Shown piece by piece: positions 26,465 to 61,561 of a stretch of DNA of 64,000 nucleotides. The DNA is taken from NCBI GenBank assembly GCA_964016885.1, contig OZ024745.1, forward strand, positions 92,566,001-92,630,000. Direction: 5' to 3'. Both the position numbers and the translations under genes were made by a program. The notes under the pieces are model-generated. The model saw nothing but the letters and a program-made list of their open reading frames with translations. It made no database searches and was not told the DNA's origin. Origin of the DNA: Eledone cirrhosa. Taxonomy: Eukaryota. Position 1 is the stretch's first letter. The number at the start of each line of letters is the position of its first letter.

Positions 26465-26690
26465 ATAGCTTTAGAACCATTACTAAAACTAACCAGTAAT
26501 ATATAGCTTTAGAACTGTTACTAAAATTAACCAGTAATATATAGCTTTAGAACTCTTACTAAAACTAACCAGTAATATATAGCTTTAGAACTATTACTAA
26601 AACTAACCAGTAATATATAGCTTTAAAACTATTACTAAAACCAGCCAGTAATATATAGCTTTAGAACTATTACTAGCCAGGAATATATAT
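26465..26690. repeat. 38-bp minisatellite, about 6 copies
   Basis: Unit ATAGCTTTAGAACTATTACTAAAACTAACCAGTAATAT. Confidence 0.92.
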
Positions 26691-30124: not shown

Positions 30125-30366
30125 TTAAGTTATCAGATCAAATGTTTCAGCATAAAGGTCATGCTGGAAGTGTATTTGTCCTTTCAGCGATTCCAACATT
30201 TTACGATGCTCAACACCAAGTTCCCGCAAACTGGAGATACTCATTAGCAATCGTGGAAAAAGTCCCACTTCATCAGGGTGAGCAGCATTAATTTCATGCT
30301 GCAAAGCCTGGATTAAAAGTTCTTGAAGCCGGTTAATTTTATCACTACGCTCAAGGCCATGACGAT
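30125..30366 (-). CDS. Nuclear receptor last coding exon: LBD helices 9-12
   Basis: (D)RHGLERSDKINRLQELLIQAL...LFPRLLMSISSLRELGVEHRKMLESLK...DLYAETFDLIT*. Acceptor ctttacag, TAA stop. AF-2-like LYAETF. Confidence 0.95.
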
Positions 30367-30519: not shown

Positions 30520-30914
30520 TACATATAACGTTGAAATGAAGCAGCCATGTTTTGTTGGATGTGCAATGTAAGTGTGAGAGAAAAGCAGAGCTTGGATGAA
30601 TTGAGAAAGAAACTTGGTTTTAAAGGAATTCAAGGTGGTGTACAGGAGAGTAGACTGTTTTGGTACAGTGGTACAGACATGTGATGCACATGGATGATGA
30701 CAAATGCATGAAGAAGTGCCAGGAAATGCCAGTGGAAGGAAACTGCAGTAGAAGTAGACCAAGAAAGATCTGGACAAAGGTTGTGAGAGCTGACCTCAAA
30801 TCCCTGAGACTCACAGAGGAGATGAGGAAGAAACATGACAAGTGGAGATATGCTGTGGTGAAAAGGACCCGTACAAGCAAGCGTGGAAAAATGGACATAA
30901 AAACGATGATGATG
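30520..30914 (+). mobile_element. Degenerate RTE LINE 3' fragment in the last intron
   Basis: WYRHVMHMDDDKCMKKC...EGNCSRSRPRKIWTKVVRADLK is homologous to the end of the 60-kb RTE. Ends in GATGATGATGA. Confidence 0.8.
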
Positions 30915-32894
30915 AAATTTATAATGGCTAACAGATAATCAGTCATAAATATTTCTATAATGAAACATTATTTTTTTGTCTGAGTACACTGCATTAAAAA
31001 ATTTACCAGGAAACTAGTGGTTTATAAAAGTAAGTACAATAAAGTTCATAAAACACAGAACTAAGTAATTTCCTCATAGTTCAATCATCTTAGTTCTTTG
31101 GGTGTAAGGGAGGTAATCCGAGTGTTCACACGATATTTTACTGATGTAATGATTCTCAATGAAATCAGATAATAGCAGACGTGAATACAGAAATCTACAA
31201 GATACAATTTTTAACACTTCCTATTTTTAATTAGTAGCAAACCTGTGCAACATCTCTAAAATTATATAGTTGAACACTTATTTTGAAAAGCATAATAGAA
31301 ATGTATGTAAGAAGTATATTTGTATGTACAAAAGTGAAAATCTTGGATGACAGTCAGAACTGGAGAAATTTGGTCTTATAGAAGAGATGAAGTTAGATTT
31401 AGTCAGGTGAGAGACTACTAAACCTGTTCAACTTATATGAGCATGAAAAAATGGGTATGCAACCGATTGTTGCTGGAATATTTTAGGGAAAAATTGAGTT
31501 AAATGCTGCAATTCCAATAACTGGCTACTGAAAATGAAGGAAGAGTTATCTGCCTTGCCAAGAAACGGCACAATAACTTAGAGAATATTGGATTTTTCTT
31601 CAGTTAAAAAACATTCTCAAATCAACTAAAAGTGTTCAGAAATTTAACTTCAGTTGAACATTTATGTTTATGAAAATGTCGAAACAGATTGGTGGGACTC
31701 TTCAATCTCAGATTTAACACGATTTTATCAAAGACTACTCTACTGAAAGATGTGATGAACATTAACCCTTTCATGACTGTATGTCTAATGAAATATGCTC
31801 TATTTTAATTAATTAATGAAGAATATTGAGGGATTTATTAAAAGTATTAATAATTTCGTTACTAAGACAGTAACTTAATGTAAGGTTCTTATGTAAAATT
31901 ATATTGGAATATTTTAATTTAACTAGGAAACCTTTAAAATGAGTGGTTTTATTTCATAGAACCAAAGTCGGTTTTCGCTGGGCTGGTAACTAAAGGTTAA
32001 CTAATGAAATTCACTCTGTTTCAATGAACAATTTTGAGGGATTTACTAAAATTATCAATAATTTTGCTAACAAAAGGGCTAACTAACTGAGCCAAAGTAA
32101 ATATATAAAAGTAAGAGTATTATTATTTTTTAATATGTTTTTATTACAATATTGTCTAAAGACAACAAACACTTCTGCAAAGAACTCAACAATATTGTAA
32201 GGAAAACATACTAAAAAATGAAGTTTTCCAAATTCAGACATATACTTCAATTGATACAATTCTAACACTTCAACCATGAAGAGTCATACTTTTATTCCAC
32301 TTTGGGAAACTGAAGCAAGTAGAATGGTTTATTCTTCATGTTTCTTACAAGACTTGATAACAGAACATTAACCTCTCAGCAATCATATTTCTCTTTACAA
32401 ATATGAAAAATACTAATGCTTCATAATCTATCTGTATTTGCAGAAGTGAAACATATTTTTCATCACTCACTTCAGAGTCACCCCCACAACACATCACTTG
32501 CTCTCCCACAGTATTGGTGCCACAACAGTTCACCCTGTATGACGTTGTGCTGGTGCCATGACCAAAAAACATCCAGTTCACCCTCTAAGGTTGTCACCCT
32601 GGGGCCCCAACAAAAAGCACCCAGTCCATGCCATGAAAAACGTTCCCAAAATCCACTCTGTAATGTAGTTAACATTAGTAAGACATCCAGCCATATAAAA
32701 CCAAACCCAAATCAGATAGTGTGGGTAAAATGTGGTTACTTAATTTGTCTGGCTTCATAACGTGACAACTCCCCTAACCCATGGAAACAAGGGAAACAGA
32801 TGTTATACAGTTTACTTTGATGGTGAATGTTATTCAAGTTACAGGCCATCAGTTTTGTTGAATTGGCAAATTGTAATCTTAATTAGCAAAAAAA

Positions 32895-33200
32895 AAAAGA
32901 TGAAACATATTGAAGAGTACTCACAGCTGATACAGAGATCACAGCACCGATTCTATGGGCATGTGGTTAAAATGTCTCAGGAAAGGATCACTGGACAGAT
33001 TTTATGGGCAAAACCAACTGGCAGGAGACCCAGGGGTAGACTCCAAGCAAGATGGTTGGATAACATCCATGAGCTTGGCTGGTCTTCTTTGGGGATCCAG
33101 CCAGATCAGTTGGAGACGGTTGCTTCTGACAGGACCAGCTGGAAGGAGTGTTTAAGGACTCTGCCCCCATGACCCTCTCAGGAATAAGTGGCGAAGAAGA
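32895..33200 (+). mobile_element. Degenerate RTE-type LINE 3' fragment (second family)
   Basis: IQRSQHRFYGHVVKMSQERITGQILWAKPTGRRPRGRLQARWLDNI; ends in GAAGAAGAA. Confidence 0.75.
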
Positions 33201-33246: not shown

Positions 33247-33466
33247 CTGGAGATATTAGCACCAAAGAACTGAACAATGCTGTTTCTATGTCACGCAAAT
33301 GAAAGGCATTGAAGCGGGTACAGAAGTTAAAGAGAAAGTCAACAAAATGTTCTCCAAGAGGAAATCCAGCTTTCATGTCATCTCGGCTCATTAGCAACCC
33401 AGAGTCTGAGGCTATAATAGTATTGCTGTCCCCATCAACCAAATTGGAATGAACTACACAAGCAAT
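33247..33466 (-). CDS. Nuclear receptor exon: LBD helices 5-8
   Basis: IACVVHSNLVDGDSN...FNAFHLRDIETALFSSLVLISP. Acceptor ctttgtttag, donor GTAAAC. 220 nt, phase 0 to 1. Confidence 0.93.
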
Positions 33467-36895: not shown

Positions 36896-37072
36896 CTCAA
36901 AACAACCCCCTTTTATCAATTTAATCTGACTGTCTTGTTCTAAAGATGTAAAGCCAGGGATTTTTTTCGCAAACACTATTACATCTTGTATGGTTTTATT
37001 TATACGGTGTTGAAAACTTTGCCAGCAAAGATCGCCTAACTTTTCAGTTCTAGAAGACAATGATGGGCCATC
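36896..37072 (-). CDS. Nuclear receptor exon: LBD helices 3-5
   Basis: DGPSL...WQSFQHRINKTIQDVIVFAKKIPGFTSLEQDSQIKLIKGGCFE contains the NR signature FAKxIPGFxxLxxxxQxxLIK. Acceptor ttcttccag, donor GTGAAT. 177 nt. Confidence 0.95.
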
Positions 37073-38594
37073 CTGGAAGAAAAAACAAGATTGAAAAGTA
37101 GATAAAAATGGAAATAAAATATTATAAACAACTTCAACACATACAAACAAAATATGTATATAGATGAAAATACATATACTATCTGGGATCTCCAAAATTT
37201 AAGAAATTTTTGTTAAGTAATGTTTCAAACAGCAGCTTACCAATGAAAAGGTCAGTTATTTTATAAAATTCTTCTAAAATTTTCCAAAAGAACAACAAAA
37301 AAAAAAAAAAAAAAAAAAAAAACCCCATCATTGTATAGGTGTGCCACATGAGAACTTAACTGAAGGGAATTCTAGAGAGATACATAAAATAAACAGCAAA
37401 CAGCATCAAATAAATTAGTGGCAATACAATATACATAGGCAAGGTTCTGGACCAGGAAAGTTCCTTTGCATGTTGCTGACCTGGGAAAGGCTTTTATGGA
37501 AGATTAACAGCCATCCATACAAGTAAGGTTCCCTTCTTCATGCCATCTTGGTTGTAAAAGGGAAAAGTTTAAAGTATTGATATAACCTGGTACCAGTAAC
37601 CTCTGAAGGTAAAGAACCCAAAGAGATATGTCAAGGCATCATGTCCAAAGTACTAACTAATTCCACCAATCTACTACTGTAGACTGGTCCTTTATTTATT
37701 GACGCTGAAAGGATGAAAGGTAAGGTAGACCTTGGCAGGATTTAACTCAAATTTAACTGGAACAGATATTGTGAAGTATTTAATTCAATGTTCTATCTAC
37801 TCTGCCAATTCACCACCATATACTAATACTTCTGAAAATACACAGGTACACACAACACAACACACACACAACAGAATACACAAACACACAACACAACACA
37901 CACAGCAATAAGAGAGTAAACACTGAAATTAATTCAACACAAACATATATAGAAACATAACAAATATATAAAAATATCTCTAACTAAAATAAATAAAACT
38001 ATACAACATTTATCCAGTTGCCCAACCTAATAGGGTCATTCCAGAAAAACTTATCAGGGGTGCGTCCCGGAGATCTTCAAATTTTCACCATTTATTGGTA
38101 TCCACTTACCAATCAGATTTTATGGCTATTCAAAGATTTGGGCAATTTCCAAAATTTTGAAAATCTCCCCAACCACTTTACAGCGTGTATTGGTTGCATT
38201 TAGGAGAATTAATTAAAGGGTTTAGTTTTAAATCTAGATGTTTTGTTGGCCAGTAGAAATCCTACATTTCAGCTTCTCTCACATATTTCTAGACATTTGG
38301 ATATATGTGAATACAAGAAGAGAGAAAATAATGGCAAGAATGGTCAAAAATCACATGTGGAATTTATAAATATTTTGTAAGGGTGTACAGAAGATTTCAG
38401 ACCATAGTAAATATAAAGGAGCATAACTAAATACACAAAGTATTTTCTTTCTGATGTCATCAATTCTACCATCAAGATATTCAATATAATGATTTCTAAT
38501 ATTAGCTCTAAGTAGCCACATATTTCAAACATGAATACAATTGATTAAATTCCCCTCAGTTTTTAAGTGAAACTTCTTTTATCAATGAAAGTGG

Positions 38595-39028
38595 GAAGAC
38601 ATATTGGTGAGGTTTGATGAGAAGATATTTTGGTGGGGTTTGGAGGGAAGACATCTTGGTCGGGTTTGGTGGGAAGACATCTTGGAAGGGATTGGTGGGA
38701 AGACATCTTGATGGAAAACATCTTGGTGGGGTTTGATGGGAAGACATCTTGGTGGGGTTAGATGGGAAGAACTCTTGGTGGGGTTTGGTGGGAAGAAATC
38801 TTGGTGGGGTTTGGTGGGAAGAAATCTTGGTGGGGTTTGGTGGGAAGACATCTTGGTGGGGTTTGGTGGGAAGACATCTTGGTGGGGTTTGGTGGGAAGA
38901 CATCTTGGTGGGGTTTGGTGGGAAGACATCTTGGTGGGGTTTGATGGAAAGACATCTTGGTGGGTTTGGTGGGAAGATATTTTGGTGGGGTTTGGTGGGA
39001 AGACATCTTGGTGGGGTTTGATGGGAAG
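38595..39028. repeat. 26-bp G-rich minisatellite, about 16 copies
   Basis: Unit TTGGTGGGGTTTGGTGGGAAGACATC. Confidence 0.95.
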
Positions 39029-40510
39029 AGTAAAAAGTGAAGTTGATCTTAACAGAATTTGAACTTAGAACGTAAAGGGACATAATGATTTCTGTATTAA
39101 AAACATGATATAATGTAAACAGAATCAGCATAAATAAATAAAATATAAAGTTTTGAACTAAGAATAATAATCCCAGCCCTTTAAATATACCTCCAATAGC
39201 TAAAGGACCATGTTTAACCTTCTTCATACTAACTCACCTCACACCATCCTTGGATTTAAGATACAAAACTGCTTGTTATAAAATGTTCATCTTCATCACT
39301 GTTTAACATCTATTTTCCATGTTTGCATTGTTAGACAAACTGTCACATTATGAGACTAGATAGGTCAGGTTACCACATCCAGTTCATATGTTCCATTTTG
39401 GCCTTGGTTTTCTACAGCTAGATGCTCTTCCTAATGTCAACCACATTACAACAAGTGCTGGGAACTTTTCTCATGGCATCAGCACTACTGCCTTACAGGA
39501 TGGCCTTAGTGCTTTTTGTAATATTTATATTAAAACCTTCAAACCTTATTTTATGTAATAATTCTTTGTTAAGTTATATTCTACATATCAGCTTACTAAC
39601 AAAAAGTTATTTTACTAAATTCCTCCAAATTTTCCATTATTATTATTTTGTTTTTCTAAATTAAATGAAACATATTCATAGAGTATTTCATTAGAAATAC
39701 TAGCAGAAAAACCACCGAAGGTGGTTTTCTGCTAGTATGTGTAGTGTGCATATTGATATTATATGCAAATAGATATGCATATAGATATGATACGTCCAAT
39801 AAAATCATAATTGACAATATGCACAGAAATTGAAGAGAGACTGTGTTACACTCTCTTCTGTAATCAGTAAAGTAATCCATGATACCTTTAAAAAAGACAA
39901 TATTATATATAAACTGCATTGCAGTGAAATGTTATGAAAACGAAAAAGGGGGAACTTAGCAACGGAAATATAAATCTTATATAATGATGCAAGTCTATCA
40001 ACGTTTATATAAGCGATGTGATATAGCGTCTATTATATCACAACTGGATATTGACATTTGAAAAGAAGTGAATCTTGAAATAAGTAATAAAACTATTTAT
40101 ATTTAATCAAGAGTTACAAAATTTAGTACATAAATTATGTAATATTCATTCATTATTTATTCAAAGTAATCTAACTTATTTTACTAACGGGATAAAAATA
40201 TATATTCAGGACACAGTCCCGCACTCTTCCCTTTATTATATTATGATGGTAATAAAAGGGTTAGCATGAAAGATGAAAAACAATATGCAGAGCAAGGAGA
40301 AAAAAGAAAAAAGTAAACACCATAACAAAGCCCAAAGAAGTTTTAAGAAGAAATTTCAGATTTCATATTTGAGGACAAAACCACAAATAAAAAAATGGGA
40401 TCAGTTTCATTAATTTTGTCATAGAAAGCCAGAATCAGTTCCCGTCCCATCCTTGCAAGCAGGAAAAAGTGGACGTAAAATGACGATGATGAATCTGTTT
40501 TGGTGTTTAA

Positions 40511-41804: not shown

Positions 41805-43177
41805 TTTAATATCCTCATTCAGACGTTTTCCTATCATACTGTCCAATAATTTGCCTGGCTTCAGCTCCTGATAACGCATTTGAATTGCTGCCATTCGACT
41901 TTCTTGGCAACCAAAGCTGTTGCTAAAAGCTTCTTCTATTATCATTGTCATGTTTGGAATGGTTTCATCCTCACTTCTATGCAAACTGTTCAAATGTTGT
42001 CCACTAATGCTTGCACCAGCAGCATTATCATGAGCCACAGATGGCAAAGTCATCATATGGTCAGCAGAAGACTGGTAACTGATCCGTTCTTGCTTGACTA
42101 CAGTTAGACTAGGGGACGTTGTGTCAGGTATCTGCTGCTCCATTCGATGCCAGGGAATGGATGTCATATTACATGATAGATTCACTGGTTCTGGAGACAA
42201 TGTCTCCTTAGGTGACTGATTATTGAAGCAGCTGTCACTGTCTTTCACCTCTTGCTTGATGTGTTTACTTGGTTGAATACTATTACAACTCTCCTCTTGT
42301 TCAGAAATCATATAGGGTCGCTTTTTAATTGGACTTCGATTCACCGGTTTGTCATGCTTGAAAGTCTTACGTAGATCTAATGAAGTGTTGGCTACAATTA
42401 CAGATGGCTGTGTAGTAGTAGTAATAGTATTGACAGTTGTGGACAGACTGCGGTCAGTGTGCTTGTTGACAGCAACTGAGTTGGTGCTCACCGGGTTCAT
42501 AAGCTGCACTGATGATGTTCGATTTATATAGGAGTTATGAAAGCGTTGTGTTGAAGGAGATACTGTAGTGATTGCATGGGAAGTTGGCCGAATATCGCTG
42601 CAGGGTTTCAATAGAAACGGGGATTGTTGCACACCAAATGAGACACTAGAAGGAATACTTAAGATAGAACTAACAATTGACTGTACAGCAGGTTTGTGCG
42701 CTGTTGAAGGAACAGATATAGGACTGCGTTCAACGGCAATGGGTTTAGGGTAAGAAGAACTGTCATCAACAGGCTCAGGTAATTTCGAGCCCTCATCAGA
42801 CTCAGCATCTGATATGTTAGTGAAAGGAGAATTTTCTCCATTAGCAAGTAGTTTATGCTCTTCAACTACCATCTTAGGGGGACAAGTGCTGACAGCTCTG
42901 TTCTTCAGAAGAAGGGAAAGCGCAGTGACAGAAGATCTGTTGACAGAGTTTGCCTCTGAGTCAATATGTATGGATGATGTGACAGCAGCTGTTGAAGAAA
43001 CTAGAGGTGACAGGTCTGAGTTGCTGGGGCTGGGAGCTTGGACAAATGCTGGCAGCATCTCAGGGGTCATCTCTGACTGTAAGCTTAATAAGCCATGTAA
43101 TGCTTGTTGAGTCTGAGTATCTTCAATTGTCTTTATCATCTCTCGCATCTTTCGAGAACGGCGGCCAAGTTTGGCAG
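41805..43177 (-). CDS. Nuclear receptor exon: DBD C-terminal extension, long S/T/P-rich hinge and start of LBD
   Basis: AAKLGRRSRKMREMIK...KRLNEDIK, contained largely in ORF 41712..43148. Acceptor tctgttgtag, donor GTAAGT. 1373 nt, phase 1 to 0. Confidence 0.9.
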
Positions 43178-43302: not shown

Positions 43303-43523
43303 CCCTTTAGCATTTACATTACTCTATATTTACTATTATATTTTCACAGTAAAGGCTTTACCTCACATAATTATCTCACATAATATCAAATCTATGAGAT
43401 TTTGATAGTATTTATTTTGAAAAGAATACCTTAACATCAGTATGAGTGGCCGATTTCGGACGGTTTCGACAAAAAGAGGTGAGAGAATTCTGGCCGGATT
43501 TGGCCGGTTTAAATGCTAAAGGG
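43303..43523. mobile_element. piggyBac-like MITE
   Basis: 14-bp TIR CCCTTTAGCATTTA with TTAA on both sides. Other copies at 40511-40729, 3188-3380 and 2389-2967 (the last interrupted by nested repeats). Confidence 0.82.
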
Positions 43524-43569
43524 TTAAAGAATGAAATTGAACAGTTAATAAGAATAAACCATAACTAAC

Positions 43570-43720
43570 CTGTTCTTGACATGCCCAATGCCAAACATTT
43601 CTGCAGACGACAGTACTGACAACGGTTCCTTGTTTGCACTGTTATTTCACAGTTCTTGTTATAAAAACACTTCTTCCGAGTTGGGTCGCCAATATCTTGT
43701 AAAGCACGTCTAAAAAATCC
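43570..43720 (-). CDS. Nuclear receptor exon: DBD zinc finger 2
   Basis: My translation: [50 protein letters not shown]. Acceptor tattttttag, donor GTTAGT. 151 nt, in frame with both neighbours. Not in the ORF track. Confidence 0.95.
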
Positions 43721-44084
43721 CTAAAAAATACAAAAACAACAAGAGAAATAAATAACGAGAGGTAAATTATACATATCTGAGTAACTTATAATAATTTTCT
43801 TTCATATTCAACATTTTATCCAAGCTAATATTTCCTTAAAAGAAATATTTCTACATATTTGTAGTTTGGGAGTTAAGATAACTGGATGTAGATGAATGCT
43901 GAGAGCTGTAGAAGCCATGTACAGGGGTCTGTCAAAGGATAACTAAGTGTAGAGAAATAGCTTGTGAGAGATGTACAAGCTATATACAGGGGTAGTGTTG
44001 GTAAACTGAAAAGATAACTTAGTGTAGATGAATGTTATGTATCTTAGGGAAGACAGCATAATGCTTGTGGATGCTGTGTGATGT

Positions 44085-44745
44085 GAGACAGTGTGATGTG
44101 GGGGCCCATAAACTAGGTCATATAGTGATGTGAGCCTGTGTGATGTGGGTCATAAGCTAGGTCATATAGTGGTGTGAGAGTGTGATGTGGGTCATACAAT
44201 AGGTCATATAGTGGTGTGAGAGTGTGATGTGGGTCATACAATAGGTCATATAGTGGTGTGAGAGTGTGATGTGGGTCATACAATAGGTCATTGAGTGATG
44301 TGAGTCATACACTAGGTCATATAGTGATGTGGGTCATAGACTAGGTCATATTGTGATGTGAGAGTGTGATGTGGGTCATACACTAGGTCATATAGTGATG
44401 TGAGAGTGTGATGTGGGTCATAGACTAGGTCATATAGTGATGCGAGACAGTGTGATGTGGGTCATACACTAGGTCATATAGTGATGTGAGACAGTGTGAT
44501 GTGGGTCATACACTAGGTCATATAGTGATGTGAGAGTGTGATGTGGGTCATACACTAGGTCATATAGTGATGTGAGACAGTATGATGTGGGTCATACAGT
44601 GATGTGAGACAGTGTGATGTGGGTCATACAGTGATGTGAGACAGTGTGATGTGGGTCATACACTAGGTCATATAGTGATGTGAGACAGTGTGATGTGGGT
44701 CATACACTAGGTCATATAGTGATGTGAGACAGTATGATGTGGGGC
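44085..44745. repeat. 42-44-bp minisatellite rich in RGGTCA
   Basis: Unit GTGTGATGTGGGTCATACACTAGGTCATATAGTGATGTGAGA(CA), about 15 copies. Confidence 0.95.
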
Positions 44746-44909
44746 CAAGTCAACTACGAAACCCATACATGGTTGCCCCAGAATCAAATTTTCTACTTGG
44801 TGTTAAAACATCAGGTTTTGTCTCCAAAGAGGGTAGCTCCTTCTCCCTACTGTAAAACTCAGTTATTTATGCAACCCCTCTCTTAGCTAGTATTATTTCT
44901 CTTTATTAA

Positions 44910-45077
44910 GGGCAGTGGATTGGCAGTATTGGTAGAGGGTCAGATGCCGTGCTTTTCAGCATAGAGTTCAAATCCTGCCGAGGTTAACTTTGCCTTTCAT
45001 CCTTATGTGATCGATAAAATAATGTACCAGTAATATACTGGAATAATTGCTGGCCTTGTGCCAAAAGTAGAAACAAT
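44910..45077 (+). mobile_element. SINE copy (further + copies at 35866-36049 and about 50090-50400)
   Basis: GGGCAGTGGATTGGCAGTATTGGTAGAG...GAGTTCAAATCC...GGCCTTGTGCCAAAAGTAGAAAC. Confidence 0.8.
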
Positions 45078-45202
45078 TATTTCTCTTTATTCGTAAAATC
45101 CCAATACCAATTTGTTAAACTCACTCTTATATTTATAACGAACCATGTTTATATGAGTGGTCTTTATCAAAATTGTATTTTCTATAAATGGAGATTTACG
45201 GC

Positions 45203-45712
45203 TGAATCAACAAACCATGTCTTAGCTATTGTATGGTACTGGAATCAACAAACCATGTCTTAGCTATTGTATGGTACTGGAATCAACAAACCATGTCTTA
45301 GCTATTGTATGGTACTGGAATCAACAAACCATGTCTTAGTTATTGTATGGTACTGGAATCAACAAACCATGTCTTAGTTATTGTATGGTACTGGAATCAA
45401 CAAACCATGTCTTAGCTATTGTATGGTACTGGAATCAACAAACCATGTCTTAGTTATTGTCTAGTATTGGAATCAACAAACCATGTCTTAGCTATTGTAT
45501 GGTACTGGAATCAACAAACCATGTCTTAGTTATTGTATGGTACTGGAATCAACAAACCATGTCTTAGCTATTGTATGATACTGGAATCAACAAACCATGT
45601 CTTAGCTATTGTATGATACTGGAATCAACAAACCATGTCTTAGTTATTGTCTAGTATTGGAATCAACAAACCATGTCTTAGCTATTGTCTGGTATTGGAG
45701 TAAACAAACCAT
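45203..45712. repeat. 38-bp minisatellite, about 13 copies
   Basis: Unit GGAATCAACAAACCATGTCTTAGCTATTGTATGGTACT. Confidence 0.95.
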
Positions 45713-46189
45713 TGGAATCATCTTTGGTACCATCAGATTACCTAGAAGACTCTGTAACAATTGTGGGGTGTACATACAATAGAATAAGGTAGTTGGTACA
45801 ATAGTTTAAATAATTAGGGTATCATATGTTTGACCACTGGAATTACCAATACTTATGTTTATTCTATTAATGGCTATACAGTGTGTCTTGGAGAAAGATA
45901 CTTGCAGCTAATGTTTTTTTATATTACATCGGCAATCTTTTGTTTGATTTTGCACATAAAAAAAACAACAAGAACAACAAAAACAAACAAGAACTGTGCC
46001 ATAGAGTAGAGAATTATAATCTAATTTAATCGTGCGTGCGTGTGTACATATATATGTGCATATACATACATATATATAGTTTTGAATTGAATACTGCATA
46101 GCATTAGGACTTCTCCAATTCATGCGTAACTTGAAACTAAGTTACTATCTTGTTGCAGTTTTTTTGTTTGAAAATTCTTAAATTCTTAC

Positions 46190-46287
46190 CTTGCAGCCTT
46201 CACATGCCAACACGCCATAATGGATTCCAGATGATTTATCACCACACACCAGACATTTCAGATAAGATTGCTTGGAATTGTCTGATA
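46190..46287 (-). CDS. Nuclear receptor (NR1 subfamily), first visible coding exon: DBD zinc finger 1
   Basis: Encodes [32 protein letters not shown] (P-box CEGCKG). Acceptor ttctatttccag and donor GTAAGA. 98 nt, phase 1 to phase 0, so an upstream exon is needed but was not found. Confidence 0.95.
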
Positions 46288-47259
46288 CTGGAAATAGAAG
46301 AGAAAATGAAGAGAAATTTATATTTATATAAAAATATCTGATACATAGACACATATATGCTGGAAATAGCAAAGAAAATGGGGCAAATTTATATATATAT
46401 ATATATATATACATACATGATACAGAGACACAATAAAAGAAAAAAAACAACATTGGAGACATCTATTTATTAATATTGCAGCTATTTCATATAATGGTGT
46501 TAATTGTAATTAACCATGGCAGCTTATATAATCTACTGAAGAGAAAAATTAGAATTTGAAGAAAAATTCTGTATTGGCAAGAGGAGAGAGTTCAGTAAAA
46601 ACAAAGAATGAAATATGTTGAGAAAAAAATGTTCAATCTTTAGGACAATACTCTTTATCAGAGACTACTTAACACTTCTATAGAGGGCAGCGAGACTATT
46701 AAGCAATTATATATATATATCCATATGTGGTTGATGACTGAGTGAAAGGAGTACTGAATACCGAAGTAGAGTTTAAATATGATGACCCTGTGATAAACAG
46801 GTGAGACTCCAGAGTAATAAGACTCACTTTGTAGCCTTAATATAAATGAATATATATATATTTATTTCTGATAAAAGTAGGAATCGTCAGACTTATATAG
46901 GTTGTGAGACATATCTTCTGCTCTCCTGAACAAAATTCCAAACAAAAGATGTGCAAGAGAAATGAAAACGCTATGGGAATTATAAAACAGGATCTCATCC
47001 TTGCCCCCTCTCCTTTAAAATCAGAAGAAGGAGCAATATCTTTCTGTAGTGATACTGGTACACCCAATACCTAGCTTGAATGTAGAGAGAGAAAGAGAGA
47101 AGACTTGCTTTCAACAGAGTGAACTAAATCTAGTTGCTTGACCTGCTAGACATAACATCCAAATTTCCTTTATTAACATCTTAATAGATGATCACAACTA
47201 GAATACTTTTTTCACAGATCTGCTCAAAACTCTAAAAATATAGTAAGATAAAAAAAAAA

Positions 47260-47918
47260 AACTCTACTAAAAATATACTAGGACTAAAAACTTTCCTAAA
47301 AATATACTAGGATCAAAAACTCTACTATAAATATACTAGGATAAAGAATTCTACTAAAAATATACTAGGATCCAAACTCTACTAAAAATATACCAGGATC
47401 AAAGACTCTACTAAAAATATACCAGGATCTAAAACTCTACTAAAAATATACTAGGATCAAAACTCTACTAAAAATATACTAGGATCAAAACTCTACTAAA
47501 AATATACTAGGATCAAAAACTCTACTAAAAATATACCAGGATCTAAAACTCTACTAAAAATATACTAGGATCAAAACTCTACTAAAAATATACTAGGATC
47601 AAAAACTCTACTAAAAATATACCAGGATCTAAAACTCTACTAAAAATATACTAGGATCAAAACTCTACTAAAAAATATACCAGGATCAAAGACTCTACTA
47701 AAAATATACCAGGATCTAAAACTCTACTAAAAATATACTAGGATCAAAACTCTACTAAAAATATACTAGGATCAAAACTCTACTAAAAATATACTAGGAT
47801 CTAAAACTCTACTAAAAATATACTAGGATCAAAAACTCTACTAAAAATATACCAGGATCTAAAACTCTACTAAAAATATACTAGGATCAAAAACTCTACT
47901 AAAAATATACTCAGATCA
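47260..47918. repeat. 28-29-bp minisatellite, more than 20 copies
   Basis: Unit AAAACTCTACTAAAAATATAC(T/C)AGGATC. Confidence 0.95.
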
Positions 47919-50900
47919 AGCAGAAGAGTTGTTTTAAATTCAATGAAATATCTCAATAAAGATGGAAATTATAAGTCTAGAAATTAACCACAGAGAATTA
48001 GACCAAGTGTGGCAGCTACTTTGATGTAAATGAACTTGACTATTGAGAGCTGTTTTGGCCAAAGTCCCAACACAGCATTGGTAGTAGAATACAAACTGAG
48101 ACCCCACTCTATAGACTGAAGTTAGTTCTTCCTCTTGCAGTTCTCATACCATCTAAGTCGTATATCTTAATCTGTGGCAATTCTTAGTTAATTTTCTTCT
48201 AGACAGTTGACCTCCTCCATAAAATATTGAATAAATAGCAGCCTGTCTGAGGAAGGAGCCCCACAGGGTGGGGTGGCTGTTGCACCATGTGTCGCTGGCC
48301 ATTGTCCACAGAATGCCTTTGCCATTTTGTCCACAGGGTGCAGCCAAAACATAGCTCTTACCTAGATGTAGAGCCAGTCATCCTCTCCCCTTCCCCCTTT
48401 CTTTCTTCCTTTGTCTAGTAGTTCTTGCACTTCCCCTCCTTTTCCTCTTATTTATAGTGCTTTCTGATGATGCTTTCCTTTTCTGTATATTTTAAGTAGT
48501 TAGTTTCATGTTATAAATGTTTTAAGGTTATTATGTGTCAATCAAACTTTCATGCTAAGATTATATATGTATAAAAAACAAACATTATTATATTCCCATT
48601 GAGATTAGAAATTATATACATTTTCTTAAATTTTTTAAAATATGTTTACCTTAACCCTTTAACCCTTGATAACAAGACACCTCATGACATTGCTACACCC
48701 AGATAATGAGATGACTAGTGCAAGAAAATTGCTTGTTGACAGTCAATCAAGATCTTCTTCATAAATTTGTATCTTATATGTAGGAAATCTTATATACTAA
48801 CTAACTGTAAACAGTTTACAATCAATTCTTAGTAGCTCTTGGTGTACAATTTCAATAAAACATAACTGTCATGAGGTGACAACCACTTTGTCTGGGGACC
48901 GGTAATTTGATATCTTTGCCTCTACCCCTTATTTCTTTTACAGTGTTGACAAGATGGTCAGTTATAAAGTAGCAGTTATCTATGTATATACCTATGTAAC
49001 TATCTACTGTCAGACATTAAAAACAACATCTATCTACTTACCTACCTGTCTTTATATTTTCCTATCTAACTATCTATCTGTCTGACTGTCTACCTGTATA
49101 TCTGACTGTCAATGTATAGTTATTTACCAAGATATCTATTTTCAGATAAGAACAACAACAATAACAAAGCACAAAGCCCAATAGCAGTCCAAGGATAGAT
49201 ATGTTTCTTTTATTTGCCACCAGGGCATCAAAAGTGGGACAAGTACAAAGGGGAGAGTTTACAAAACAAGGCGTCCTCAATAGGGAGGAGGCAATAACAA
49301 TATATAAAAATAAAATAAAATATAACAAAAAATAAAATTATAACAAAATCCTCAATAGAGAGGAGGCGCCTTGGGGAGTCGCACAAACCCCGAAAAAAGT
49401 GTGCAACCCTTCTCCTCAGGAGCACAGAGAGGGGGTGCTCCCTCGTTCCTTCCTCTTTTCCACCTACAGGCTTATAGATAGATAAACAGCAAGATGGACA
49501 AACAGAGACAGACAGATAGAACAAGTCATTATAATTTAGTATAGATATATTTGATAATGACTAAAGAAAATATGGAAGAAAATTATTGTAATTGATTTAA
49601 ATGAATGTAAAATGAAATATGGTGATGGTCAGAGTGATGAGAGGAGGTCAAGGATATTTGAGGATCCAAGCATTTTTACATAGATTGGTGTAATCAAGGA
49701 ATTATTAGATTAAATAATTTTTTTTTACTTTAAACCCTGTCATTTTTTATGGGTACCATGTTAGTTAATAAATAATAATAATTGAGGAATTTATATCCAC
49801 TATGCATATTTCTTCCCAAAACAATGCAAGTACACAACTGACACCAGTTAGTACCAAAGGCAAATCTGAAATTTTTCTCTATTAGAATATTGAAAATATT
49901 GAACCGAGAGAAAATCTTTTCAATTTACAATAGCTGACGCAGATATCAATACTTCTGTTGTCAAAAGTAATATAAATGAGATTGAGGAGAAAGAACTTTA
50001 TGTAAACAAATTGAAAAGAAAGATAACAACAAAAAGGACTCTTCAGCAATGACAAGGACGTAAGAACCTCACTTGTTGTTGTTTGTAATGAAGGGCAGTG
50101 AATTGATAGAGTTGTTAGAGCCTCAAATAGAATGCTTTACCTTTCATCTTTCCAGGGTTGATAAAATAAAGCACCAGTTAAGTACTGGGGATCAACATAA
50201 TAGGCTTTTTCCTCCCCCAAAATTGTTGGCCTTAAACCTATGTTACATACCTATTATATACCTATTATATATATCTTGTTTGTAAGTCTGAGTTCAAATC
50301 CCACTGAGGTTATCTTTGCTTTACATCCTTACGGGGTCGATAAAATAAAGCACCAGTAATGTACTGGGATAATTGCTGGCCTTGTGCCAAAAGTAGAAAT
50401 AATTATATTTTACTTTAAACTTCATATGGCACTCAAAAATAATATTTCATATTCACAAATGAACAATTTTTAAAATTTTGAGTATTTAAAACAGTTTATT
50501 TTGTAACAATTTCTGAAAAGATTTTTTTTATTTGTGAATGACTTAAAAATCTGCATTGAACACAAAGGAGTGGAGAGCCTACTTTATTATTGAGCTTAAT
50601 GAGTTTGAAAGGGAAAATATGTCATAGATATGTTAAAAGAGTTACATGCAACAGCTTGATCTATAAATCAAATTGAGGAACCTGATTCTTAAAGCAATTA
50701 TTATTATGTAAACCATACAGTGTGATTTAAAATGTTAATTCACTTTCAGACTGTTACTACCTGCAAGAGAAGTTAATGTCACATTCATATTTTATATATT
50801 GTTCTCTCTCTACACACAGACTTATATAAGATCTCCAATCATCAGATGTTAATAAATTGCCAGTAAGGAAACAGCTGCGTTATCCTCCTTGGCTTTGACT

Positions 50901-51969: not shown

Positions 51970-52292
51970 ACCTGATCAGGGCTGTGACCCAGAGTTAGGT
52001 TACACAGCTTGATCAAGGTTGTGACCCAGATTTAGGTCACAGCTTGATTAGGTTTGTAACTCAGATCTCAACTTGATCAGGGTCGTGATCCAGAGTTAAA
52101 TCACTTCATCAGGGTTGTGACCCAGAGTTAGGTCACACAACTTTTTCAGGGTTGTGACCCTGAGTTAGGTCACACAGCTTGATCAGAATTGTGACCCAGA
52201 GTTAAATCACACAGTTTGATCAGGATTGTTACCCAGAGTTAGGTCACAACATAATCAAGGTTGTGACTCATAAGATTAGATATTGTGACCTA
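51970..52292. repeat. Diverged minisatellite of about 37 bp with TGACCC-N6-AGGTCA
   Basis: Unit approximately TTGATCAGGGTTGTGACCCAGAGTTAGGTCACACAGC, about 9 copies. Confidence 0.88.
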
Positions 52293-57440: not shown

Positions 57441-57572
57441 AGTAAAAAGAGAGAGAGAGATGTAGAAAAAGAGAGAGGGAGAGAGACAAGTAGAAAGAGA
57501 AATAAGAAGAAAAAACAAAGGGAAAATGACAGAAAGACAAAGAAAAAGAAAGAACCTAATACACTCAGACAA

Positions 57573-58179
57573 TGTATACACACATCTATAAAATGTATAC
57601 ACATCTATAAACTATATACACACATCTATAAAATATATACACACATCTATAAAATATATACACACATCTATAAAATGTATACACACATCTATAAAATGTA
57701 TACACACATCTATAAAATATATACACACATCTATAAAATGTATACACACATCTATAAAATATATACACACATCTATAAAATGTATACACACATCTATAAA
57801 ATGTATACACACATCTATAAAATGTATACACACATCTATAAAATGTATACACACATCTATAAAATATATACACACATCTATAAAATATATACACACATCT
57901 ATAAAATGTATATACACATCTATAAAATATATACACACATCTATAAAATGTATATACACATCTATAAAATATATACACACATCTATAAAATATATACACA
58001 CATCTATAAAATATATACACACATCTATAAAATATATACACACATCTATAAAATATATACACACATCTATAAAATATATACACACATCTATAAAATATAT
58101 ACACACATCTATAAAATATATACACACATCTATAAAATGTATACACACATCTATAAAATATATACACACATCTATAAAA
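57573..58179. repeat. 21-bp minisatellite, about 29 copies
   Basis: Unit TATACACACATCTATAAAAT(A/G). Confidence 0.95.
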
Positions 58180-59656: not shown

Positions 59657-61561
59657 ATCATCATCACCGTTTTACGTCCGTTCTTCCACGCTAGCATGGG
59701 TTAGACGGGTTGTCCTGTTGTGGGCAGTGTCTGGTCGGCTGACCATGCCTTGCTCATACAGGAACTGATCTGGCTTGATTTCTACAGCTGGATGCCCTTC
59801 CTAACACCAACCTCATTTACAGTGAGTGCTGGGTGCTTTTTCGTGGCGCCTACACGTCCACTTTACAGTGTGGGCTGGGTGCTTTTTTGCCGTGGCACCT
59901 CCACGACCACCTTGCGGTGGGGGGGGGGGGGGGCATGTTGTTTATATGCTTCAGCATGTACCCATGGGAGGTCGGGTACCCTGTATTACTGCGTGACGCC
60001 AGAAGTCACGGTCGTGTGTCATTGACTTTGAGAGGTGTAGTTGGGTAAGGTCGGCTTTTATACCTCATCCCAAGTCATCTTGGGTCTCCCCACTCCGCGG
60101 TTTCCATCAACTTCTAGTGCTCTGCACCTTTTTATGCAGCTGTCATCCTTCATACGCATCACATGTCCATACCAGCGTAACCGCCTCTCCTGCACGCAGC
60201 ATTTGATTCCTCTTATGCTCAGTCTCTCTCTCAATTCATTTATGCTTTGTCGTTCACGTATATTACTGTTACACATCCATCGGAGCATGCAGGCTTCGTT
60301 TCTCTCTAATCTACGTAAGTCTTCCACCTTCAGCGCCCAGGTCTCACTACCATGCAACATCGCTGTTCGGATACACGCATCATACAGTCTGCCTTTCATT
60401 CTGAGGGAGAAGCCTTTTGCAGCTAGCAGTGGTAGTAGTTCCCTAAACTTCTTCCATCCCGTTCTTACCCTAGTTATTGTACTTTCTGAGCACCCACCTC
60501 CGTTGCTAATTCGGTCACCTAGGTAGCAGAAGCTGTCTACTGTTTCTACAGGGCCCTCCCAGAGATTGGTGGTACTTGTTTCCTGTGGCTGTTTGCTTGC
60601 TGTTTCAGCACAGCTGCTGCATGTGAATCCTACATTCTTAATTAAGCTTCCTGAGATCCCGCTACATCTCTTGTGTACCCATTGTTTGCATTTGGGGCAA
60701 AGAATGGAGTTCCTACCTACACCTTTCCTACATACTGAGCAAGGCCATTTCCCTGAGGGGATCTGGGTTCTGTTTTCTCGTCTACTTATAAGGACCTTAG
60801 TCTTTGTCATGTTGACTTTGAGGCCCTTTCTCTCTAGTCCCTGCTTCCAGGTTTGGAATTTATTCTCTAGTTCTACCATAGATTCAGCTATGAGTGCGAG
60901 GTCATCAGCATACAGGAGTTCCCATGGGCATCCGGTCTTAAACTCCTCCGTTATTGCCTGCAGGACTATGATGAACAGGAGAGGGCTAAGAACAGAGCCC
61001 TGGTGGACCCCAACCTGTACGCTAAATTCCTCGCTATACTCATTGCCAATCCTAACTTTGCTGACTGCTCCCCTATACATGGCTTGTACCGCTTTCACAA
61101 GCCATTCATCTACTCCTAGTTTTCTAAGAGCCCACCAGATTACTGCACGTGGAACTCTGTCAAAGGCTTTCTCAAGGTCGACAAATGCCAAGTAGAGTGG
61201 CTTACTTTTAGCTAGGTACTTTTCCTGTAATTGCCTCACAAGGAAGAGCGCATCAGTGGTGCCTTTCCCTGGAACAAACCCAAATTGCATCTCGTCTATA
61301 TTCACCCGGTCCCTAATCAGCTGTGCTATAACTCTTTCTGTTACTTTCATGACCTGGTCCATCAACTTTATACCTCTATAGTTTCCTCTATCTAGTGCAT
61401 CGCCTTTACCTTTGTAGCAGTTGACAATGATGCTACTGCACCAATCTTTTGGTATGGCCCCCTCTAGTATTACCTGGTTAACGATACGTGTGGTTATAGT
61501 GTGACCTACAGACCCAGATGCCTTCAGCATCTCGGCAGCTATACCCGATGGACCGGTTGCC
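59657..61561 (-). mobile_element. RTE-clade non-LTR retrotransposon, 5'-truncated
   Basis: Contains an RT ORF, a 3' UTR and a (GAT)n tail at about 59657. Starts abruptly at ATGPSGIAAEML next to (TA)n. Confidence 0.92.
60058..61530 (-). CDS. RTE reverse transcriptase (partial) with internal C4HC3 finger
   Basis: Motifs NYRGIKL, QFGF, FVDLEKAFDRV, GVHQGSVLSPLLF, LYADD, YLG, RRLRWYGHVMRM. The stop after WDEV appears to be a 1-bp frameshift, because KADLTQLHLSKSMTHDRDFWRHAV continues in another frame. Confidence 0.92.
   Translation of the reverse strand: MLKASGSVGHTITTRIVNQVILEGAIPKDWCSSIIVNCYKGKGDALDRGNYRGIKLMDQVMKVTERVIAQLIRDRVNIDEMQFGFVPGKGTTDALFLVRQLQEKYLAKSKPLYLAFVDLEKAFDRVPRAVIWWALRKLGVDEWLVKAVQAMYRGAVSKVRIGNEYSEEFSVQVGVHQGSVLSPLLFIIVLQAITEEFKTGCPWELLYADDLALIAESMVELENKFQTWKQGLERKGLKVNMTKTKVLISRRENRTQIPSGKWPCSVCRKGVGRNSILCPKCKQWVHKRCSGISGSLIKNVGFTCSSCAETASKQPQETSTTNLWEGPVETVDSFCYLGDRISNGGGCSESTITRVRTGWKKFRELLPLLAAKGFSLRMKGRLYDACIRTAMLHGSETWALKVEDLRRLERNEACMLRWMCNSNIRERQSINELRERLSIRGIKCCVQERRLRWYGHVMRMKDDSCIKRCRALEVDGNRGVGRPKMTWDEV

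Follow-up and report, generated by a model that had tools for sequence, protein, structure and literature searches.

An octopod nuclear receptor gene, identified by its sequence as the orthologue of oyster NR1CDEF-beta, holds a locus-specific minisatellite with 28 nuclear-receptor half-sites in the intron that splits its DNA-binding domain (DBD). We consider, with a probability of roughly 0.6, that these half-sites are passengers of the repeat expansion rather than a selected control element, since equally dense arrays occur elsewhere in the genome. The window analysed here is a stretch of 64,000 nucleotides (C5:92566001-92630000) of a 2,996-Mb genome, and positions are those of the window unless a contig is named.

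The minisatellite and its host gene

The host is a nuclear receptor gene on the minus strand, of which the window carries the 3′ part with six coding exons between 46287 and 30125; the next upstream coding exon lies at C5:92709437, and therefore the gene extends over more than 113 kb. The features concerned are the following:

46190..46287, minus strand: exon with zinc finger 1 and the P-box, ending in CEGCK (PF00105 match)
43721..46189, minus strand: DBD-splitting intron of 2,469 bp, GT-AG, after CEGCK
44078..44743, plus strand: minisatellite of 666 bp with a 42-44-bp unit and 28 RGGTCA hexamers (TRF and motif counts)
44110..44120, plus strand: sole RORE-type site with the full consensus, within the first, degenerate unit; absent from the aligned contig of a close relative
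43570..43720, minus strand: exon of 151 nt with the recognition helix and zinc finger 2, starting with GFFRR (PF00105 match)
41805..43177, minus strand: long exon for the hinge and the C-terminal extension (AAKLGRRSRK); ~92.5% identity to Octopus proteins
36896..37072, minus strand: ligand-binding domain exon (profile and protein alignment)
33247..33466, minus strand: ligand-binding domain exon (protein alignment)
30125..30366, minus strand: final coding exon, stop included, with an AF-2-like C-terminus (LYAETF; protein alignment)
51973..52267, unstranded: second, unrelated minisatellite with a 37-bp unit, in the 97-kb upstream intron of the host gene (TRF and motif counts)

Within the DBD intron, 357 bp separate the array from the 3′ splice site and 1,446 bp from the 5′ one. 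The head-to-tail units of the array, for which TRF gave a period of 42 and 15.6 copies, fall within the 10-100-bp range of minisatellites. The earlier note had placed this 42-44-bp repeat between the two zinc-finger exons and had counted about 28 RGGTCA hexamers in about 600 bp, in DR6 geometry, on one strand and preceded by T; the motif scan agrees in all these respects, with exactly 28 hexamers at 44115-44714, all on the plus strand and each with T before it, while the entire window holds 76 (shuffle mean 38.5). Each unit is made of a 29-bp subunit with two half-sites and a 13- or 15-bp subunit without any. The 29-bp subunit is present in 13 copies, 12 of them with an intact DR6 pair, and is accompanied by two truncated subunits of 17 bp with one half-site apiece, while GGGTCA has been lost from both edge units. 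The gaps between hexamers measure only 6 bp (12 times), 26 bp (7), 24 bp (6), 23 bp (1) and 11 bp (1), and the array therefore contains 12 DR6 pairs and not a single DR2. The RORE consensus is WAWNTRGGTCA. It is matched in full by one array site out of 28, which the earlier note had picked out, and the remaining 27 lack the full AT-rich extension, again as that note had read most units; 14 more sites, of the GATGT-GGGTCA type, match at positions -4 to -1 and fail at -5, bringing to 15/28 those that fit the RORE rule at -4 to -1.

The array is confined to a single locus, as all 12 genome matches of the DR6 subunit pattern fall inside it. We rejected a dispersed repeat family on the same count, together with the other DNA matches to the array, which reached 66-81% over part of the query and had no RGGTCA array at the five loci inspected. 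A coding or exonised role was likewise unsupported: the longest stop-free sense frames span 49-63 codons, and none of the six Octopus proteins tested proved to be an isoform aligning to the array.

The P-box of the host is CEGCKG, split CEGCK/G by the intron, as in NR1 receptors that read RGGTCA, and from this P-box and family knowledge we predict that the host receptor likely reads RGGTCA half-sites. Both the P-box and the GRIP-like C-terminal extension are near-invariant from octopods to brachiopods and bryozoans. Relatives sharing 79-90% identity over the DBD and extension were found in molluscs, a brachiopod, nemerteans, an annelid and a bryozoan, whereas HR3/ROR forms the next group at 54-63%; the hinge exon shows ~92.5% identity to each of O. 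bimaculoides, O. vulgaris and O. sinensis and 82% to Argonauta, which makes the animal an octopod distinct from these. In a 24-row receptor tree, which contains no true E75, Rev-erb, E78 or PPAR row, the host group stands apart from HR3/ROR with support of 99/99. The host was thus rejected as an HR3/ROR (NR1F) orthologue, given this separate clade and the genome's own HR3 gene on contig C27, and the database names that bear on Rev-erb/E75 orthology are automatic best hits. The host extension reads KLGR where HR3/ROR read KFGR, and 2-3 additional residues lie between its zinc fingers. Rev-erb is not known to have an AF-2 helix. This lack is not shared by the host, whose C-terminus LYAETFDLIT aligns in position with LHKELF/LYKELF of HR3/ROR.

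The earlier note had called the host a receptor of the ROR/Rev-erb class; the tree and the primer peptides lead instead to oyster NR1CDEF-beta. The two published primers of this oyster gene each give 6/6 residue matches in the C. virginica orthologue P0078, a member of the host clade, and the two peptides are 221 residues apart, consistent with the 680-bp amplicon. In the parts of the source available (PMC4070562), NR1CDEF is placed as an unstable outgroup to NR1C-F, and the likeness to the Crassostrea gigas NR1CDEF-beta / Mytilus NR1DEF group described there rests on the oyster orthologue of the host carrying both peptides at the published distance. No account of the DNA specificity or targets of this group came up in those parts, and PMC4388693 had nothing to add on it. 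By its sequence, then, the host gene is orthologous to oyster NR1CDEF-beta and belongs to an orphan group that lies near NR1C-F but apart from it. Cestode proteins labelled NR1D (P0124, P0132) join the same clade and share a KLGRRSRK-type extension and the C-terminal motif, and this suggests that the NR1CDEF-beta group may extend to flatworms.

The second minisatellite, farther upstream in the gene, has 10 half-sites at 51985-52291 on both strands, including three everted pairs spaced by 6 bp (ER6), so that a 6-bp spacing is common to it and to the DR6 array. The chance of a second half-site array in the host gene ranges from 1 to 21% by two rates, and its presence counts against a passenger origin of the sites. 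Note that more minisatellites without receptor half-sites lie in or near the gene, at 45204-45712, 47257-47919, 38591-39029, 26465-26675 and 57571-58179 (units of 38, 29, 26, 38 and 21 bp, respectively), as do several kilobase TA-rich microsatellites. The upstream intron also contains a 500-codon open frame at 60061-61560 on the minus strand, which by its motifs resembles a non-LTR retrotransposon reverse transcriptase, and shorter decayed fragments lie near 30650-30970 and 32740-33170.

Variation of the array within and between organisms

Tandem repeats are prone to misassembly, and no listed short-read contig spans the array; even so, we find it scarcely credible that the array is an artefact or was over-expanded in the assembly. 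A 681-bp contig of short-read run X4 corresponds to 43507-44187, across the left edge, with zero differences, and the short array contigs of X4 and X5, two runs that may come from the assembly's own sample, sum to ~14x single-copy depth, a depth that is not a copy number. The repeat is also present in a related species. Summed contig depth, again not to be read as copy number, would suggest ~14 units in organism D and ~6 in organism A. Of nine runs listed, X1-X4 were compared at the left edge and X1, X2, X4 and X5 at the right edge; X2 and X3 match only the exon and common repeats, X2 has nothing at the right edge, and the right flank (44730-44895) was without cover in all four runs, those of the same species included.

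Organism A (run X1) differs from the window at 4 of 165 bases over the exon and at 2 listed positions in ~117 bases of flank. At its entry into the array, the single-copy contig of this organism shows a GGGTCA in place of the degenerate window site; it lacks the consensus RORE, contains a long subunit and then continues into different sequence with a further GGGTCA. Two short X1 contigs fall on the array at 2.3x and 3.5x single-copy depth, and we infer that such contigs come from the orthologous locus; one contig of 73 bp retains the DR6 core and shows a change of the spacer from GAGAC to GACCC, which creates a new half-site on the other strand. The array is thus older than a recent split, and it is turning over. 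Absence from close relatives had been named in the earlier note as evidence against a function, and this absence was not found, since organism A carries a version of the array. Nevertheless, survival of the array in the relative needs no selection because the flank divergence is only ~2%, and the consensus RORE was not kept. That the relative keeps the DR6 core and adds a half-site counts against the sites being passengers, and the gain is a small point for function.

Within the array, the sparing of hexamers by unit variation, which the earlier note had put forward as a check, was not significant. One of six mutation events (1/8 alleles) fell in the 12 hexamer columns of 29, with p 0.21 (0.09 for alleles) and low power for 13 long subunits, and the whole-unit test gave p 0.14-0.49, also with low power. 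Note that the sparing test favours invariance outside the hexamers because the subunits were delimited by their first seven columns.

Half-site arrays across the genome and at receptor loci

Minisatellites are abundant in this genome (~1.5 per 10 kb in the sampled stretches), and 45 of 210 sampled arrays raise some non-trivial hexamer to at least 20 per 600 bp. The earlier note had held that finding the same repeat commonly at unrelated loci would argue against a function; the exact unit is unique to the DBD intron, whereas the class recurs, with two-DR6 arrays at 13 loci. Three of these are telomere-variant arrays, and the two-DR6 search returned 83 matches against 47 for its control. As an example, three unrelated loci among the six two-DR6 loci fetched reach 28, 35 and 21 hexamers per 600 bp, one of the six has 10 perfect ROREs in 10 kb, and another unrelated locus reaches 27 per 600 bp. 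The two-DR7 pattern was found at 10 loci (25 matches, control 88), the DR9 pattern in 1,188 matches (control 5,793), those listed being dominated by a single 15-bp GTGTGGGTCATAGAA-type satellite that extends over at least 8 kb, and T-preceded RGGTCA triplets numbered 16,819 genome-wide against 22,859 in the reversed control. The triple perfect RORE gave 605 matches (control 14,213), including a satellite of at least 22 kb; none of the 100 such matches listed is in the array, where a single RORE precludes any. Although the reversed control exceeded the motif in four of the five pattern searches (two-DR6 being the exception), we make no claim of a genome-wide depletion of half-site arrays because single satellites dominate the pattern counts.

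Several of these loci deserve mention in their own right. Dense half-site minisatellites lie at C22:15.94 Mb (L078, the locus with 10 perfect ROREs), C20:8.66 Mb (L079), C22:17.155 Mb (L081), C1:18.28 Mb (L242) and C3:341.56 Mb, with 21-35 hexamers per 600 bp where counted, and mixes of telomeric TTAGGG with TCAGGG variants at C4:1889698-1890321, C496:21336-21557 and C7:29132965. The satellite at C2:391630926-391653630 (at least 22 kb) has a 44-bp unit with a perfect RORE-type site and could in principle sequester far more ROR-type receptor than the DBD-intron array.

How rare a dense array is depends on the rate used. In the first 210 Mb of C1, 22 loci were listed, of which 20 were fetched, one had already been counted (8 hexamers) and one single-row locus was left out; 9 of the 20 reach 10 hexamers per 600 bp, 1 reaches 20 and none reaches 28. 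Dense arrays are thus rare, and this counts against a passenger origin of the 28 sites. The direct rate is 0.005-0.01 dense T-preceded arrays per Mb, while 589 frequency-matched motifs gave a mean of 0.25 per Mb in 1.44 Mb of samples. Accordingly, an array of this density would turn up by chance in the DBD intron of any receptor with a probability of 0.07-0.35% by the direct rate (T-preceded) versus 3-8% by matched motifs, and in any receptor gene with one of 0.7-3% versus 30-51%, on the assumption that genes are 50-100 kb long. The coincidence is real, and not extreme for a scan that flags any factor gene carrying its own motif.

The PF00105 search returned 58 matches, which we grouped into at least 29 genes. 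Around the 28 other receptor genes (60 stretches of 10 kb, 600 kb in all), the densest 600 bp held 2-8 hexamers and no cluster of at least 10 was found; the controls were 84 stretches located ~0.3-1.5 Mb away from the receptor loci. Arrays with at least three hexamers amounted to 6/89 at receptor loci versus 1/121 in controls (Fisher p 0.043; 0.085 without the prompting C1 locus), which is no excess when compared to the matched-motif mean of 4.0 (589 motifs). Clusters of 5-8 hexamers occurred in 5/60 receptor stretches versus 0/84 controls (Fisher p 0.011; 0.027 without the prompting locus), and this counts against passenger sites; when the same contrast was set against matched motifs, it gave 0.024-0.10 at thresholds 5-6 and was gone at 8. 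Receptor loci were in fact near expectation (5 vs 2.6-4.4) and controls low (0 vs 3.5-5.5). We regard the contrast as a weak hint, its thresholds having been chosen after seeing the data. The five small clusters (6-8 hexamers per 600 bp, within 10 kb of other receptor DBDs) are L135:4476-4785 (C1:37.45 Mb), L100, L116, L146 and L147, and one of the five genes is presumably EcR-like.

In addition, a gene at C6:25133360-25150459 (plus strand) encodes 13 tandem nuclear-receptor-type C4 DNA-binding domains, nine in one 2,931-codon open frame and four in downstream exons. Twelve of its P-boxes are divergent, and CEGCKG is found in the last domain only. The same number of domains is found in its orthologues from O. 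vulgaris (CAI9724068.1) and O. sinensis (XP_029638073.2), which are 62-89% identical by exon; no ligand-binding domain was detected in these proteins by Pfam, and the predicted proteins also include a fused selenocysteine-lyase-like domain, possibly the product of a gene-model join. Unnamed proteins with 3-6 such DBDs are present among the cluster representatives, and in the literature searched, including the available parts of PMC10497141, PMC8363021 and PMC11589774, we found no receptor with more than two DBDs. The C6 gene is possibly an undescribed ‘polydactyl’ receptor-finger protein; it is more striking than the array and merits its own follow-up more than the array does.

Origin, rival readings and known systems

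The two subunits of the array are homologous at 11/15 positions and the half-site-free seed recurs in other arrays, and for these reasons we favour an origin from a short TG-rich repeat. The process would have started from a ~15-bp repeat of the GTGATGTGAGACAGT type, whose seed also sits in unrelated arrays of the genome, and a handful of substitutions in it would have produced GGGTCA. The second half-site, at a distance of 6 bp, would stem from partial duplication within the repeat, and the resulting 42-44-bp unit would have been multiplied ~15 times by slippage or unequal exchange, leaving a homogenised centre and degenerate edges. That the half-sites are passengers of such an expansion is also supported by the DR6 geometry not being special (13 loci versus 10 for two DR7 pairs). 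Site quality in the array is not tuned to ROR/Rev-erb rules, with 1/28 full RORE and no DR2. Receptors reading RGGTCA would likely bind the array wherever chromatin is open.

Such binding could matter in more than one way. Other RGGTCA receptors might read the array as an enhancer or silencer and so cross-regulate the host gene, a reading that we hold to be unlikely, though it deserves some weight. Receptors that we take to be HR3/ROR, E78, COUP-TF, TR2/4-like and RXR, names assigned from their DBD sequences, are encoded in the genome, more than half of the array sites satisfy the RORE rule at -4 to -1, and the second array of the gene and the small-cluster contrast point in the same direction, as does the recruitment of COUP-TF and TR4 by tandem variant telomere repeats in human cells, as described in the available parts of PMC3518223. 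That contrast, however, is mainly a deficit in the controls rather than an excess at receptor loci and vanishes at thresholds of at least 8, and denser and better arrays occur at loci without any of the at least 29 receptor genes. Less probable still is autoregulation, in which the host receptor itself would occupy the array and control the gene that encodes it, the number of units determining how strong the feedback is. Rev-erb-alpha, which autoregulates, offers a precedent; the near-invariant P-box and GRIP-like extension, the placement of the array within the DBD intron of the receptor gene itself (rare by the direct rate) and two independent arrays with a 6-bp spacing would all be consistent with such autoregulation. 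On the other hand, that the host would read ROREs is a premise drawn from its P-box, while KLGR replaces KFGR and 2-3 extra residues separate the fingers; the host groups with NR1CDEF-beta and is no ROR orthologue; the sole full RORE is not kept in the relative; and the receptor is ancient whereas the array differs between species ~2% apart. In addition, Rev-erb uses A/T-flanked monomers and DR2 elements according to the available parts of PMC10712084, of which the array has one and none. The sequence evidence thus leans against the autoregulatory reading.

A bolder version, which we find equally improbable, would have an ancient orphan receptor that twice recruited minisatellites of its own half-sites (DR6 in the DBD intron and ER6 upstream), so that repeat length would become an evolvable dial on self-feedback and receptor genes would be places where half-site arrays, scarce in the sampled genome, are tolerated or favoured. 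Very improbable, finally, is an action of the array in the pre-mRNA. Nova prefers YCAY words, and on the sense strand the 666 nt of the array contain 63 of them, a dense Nova-type cluster located 357 nt upstream of the 3′ splice site that could promote skipping of the 151-nt second zinc-finger exon; but any TG-rich repeat yields YCAY, which illustrates that more than one motif story can be drawn from this array. No RNA run containing the stretch turned up in the DNA-type search of runs. If the passenger origin that we prefer holds, the array is one of thousands of octopod minisatellites, and caution is due, as at ~1.5 arrays per 10 kb almost any motif will be amplified somewhere. A functional array would be one of few cases in which the length of a tandem repeat determines how strongly a transcription factor feeds back on itself; it would also offer a convenient probe of the DNA specificity of the NR1CDEF orphan receptors, a group conserved in molluscs, annelids, nemerteans, brachiopods and bryozoans.

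VNTRs with regulatory effects are a familiar phenomenon, e.g., the VNTR in intron 1 of CFAP410 (PMC9484465) and a tandem-repeat enhancer repressed by MORC3 (PMC13373173). As far as the available parts of these sources go, the array resembles them as a locus-specific array of 10-100-bp units that multiplies a factor motif in a non-coding part of a gene, and differs in that the motif is that of the host gene's own protein family. No precedent for a half-site minisatellite in a receptor's own gene was found in the literature searched, whose coverage mostly excludes subscription papers. The variant telomere repeats (TCAGGG)n, which recruit COUP-TF/TR2/TR4 in ALT cells (PMC3518223, in the parts available), are likewise tandem GGGTCA half-sites on one strand with spacings in multiples of 6 bp, arisen by repeat mutation and bindable by orphan receptors; in contrast, the array is intronic, has a 42-44-bp unit and T-preceded sites, and is not telomere-derived. 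Rev-erb binds A/T-flanked monomer sites and RevDR2 (PMC10712084), and ROR-gamma reads classic ROREs via its extension (10.1101/2021.05.25.445650), according to the parts available of both; the array shares with the RORE/RevDR2 elements of the former the T-preceded RGGTCA core, extended by 15/28 sites at -4 to -1. It departs from them in having one full A/T-rich extension, no DR2 and a DR6 geometry. Natural RORE/RevDR2 elements usually consist of one or two sites, as compared to the 28 of the array.
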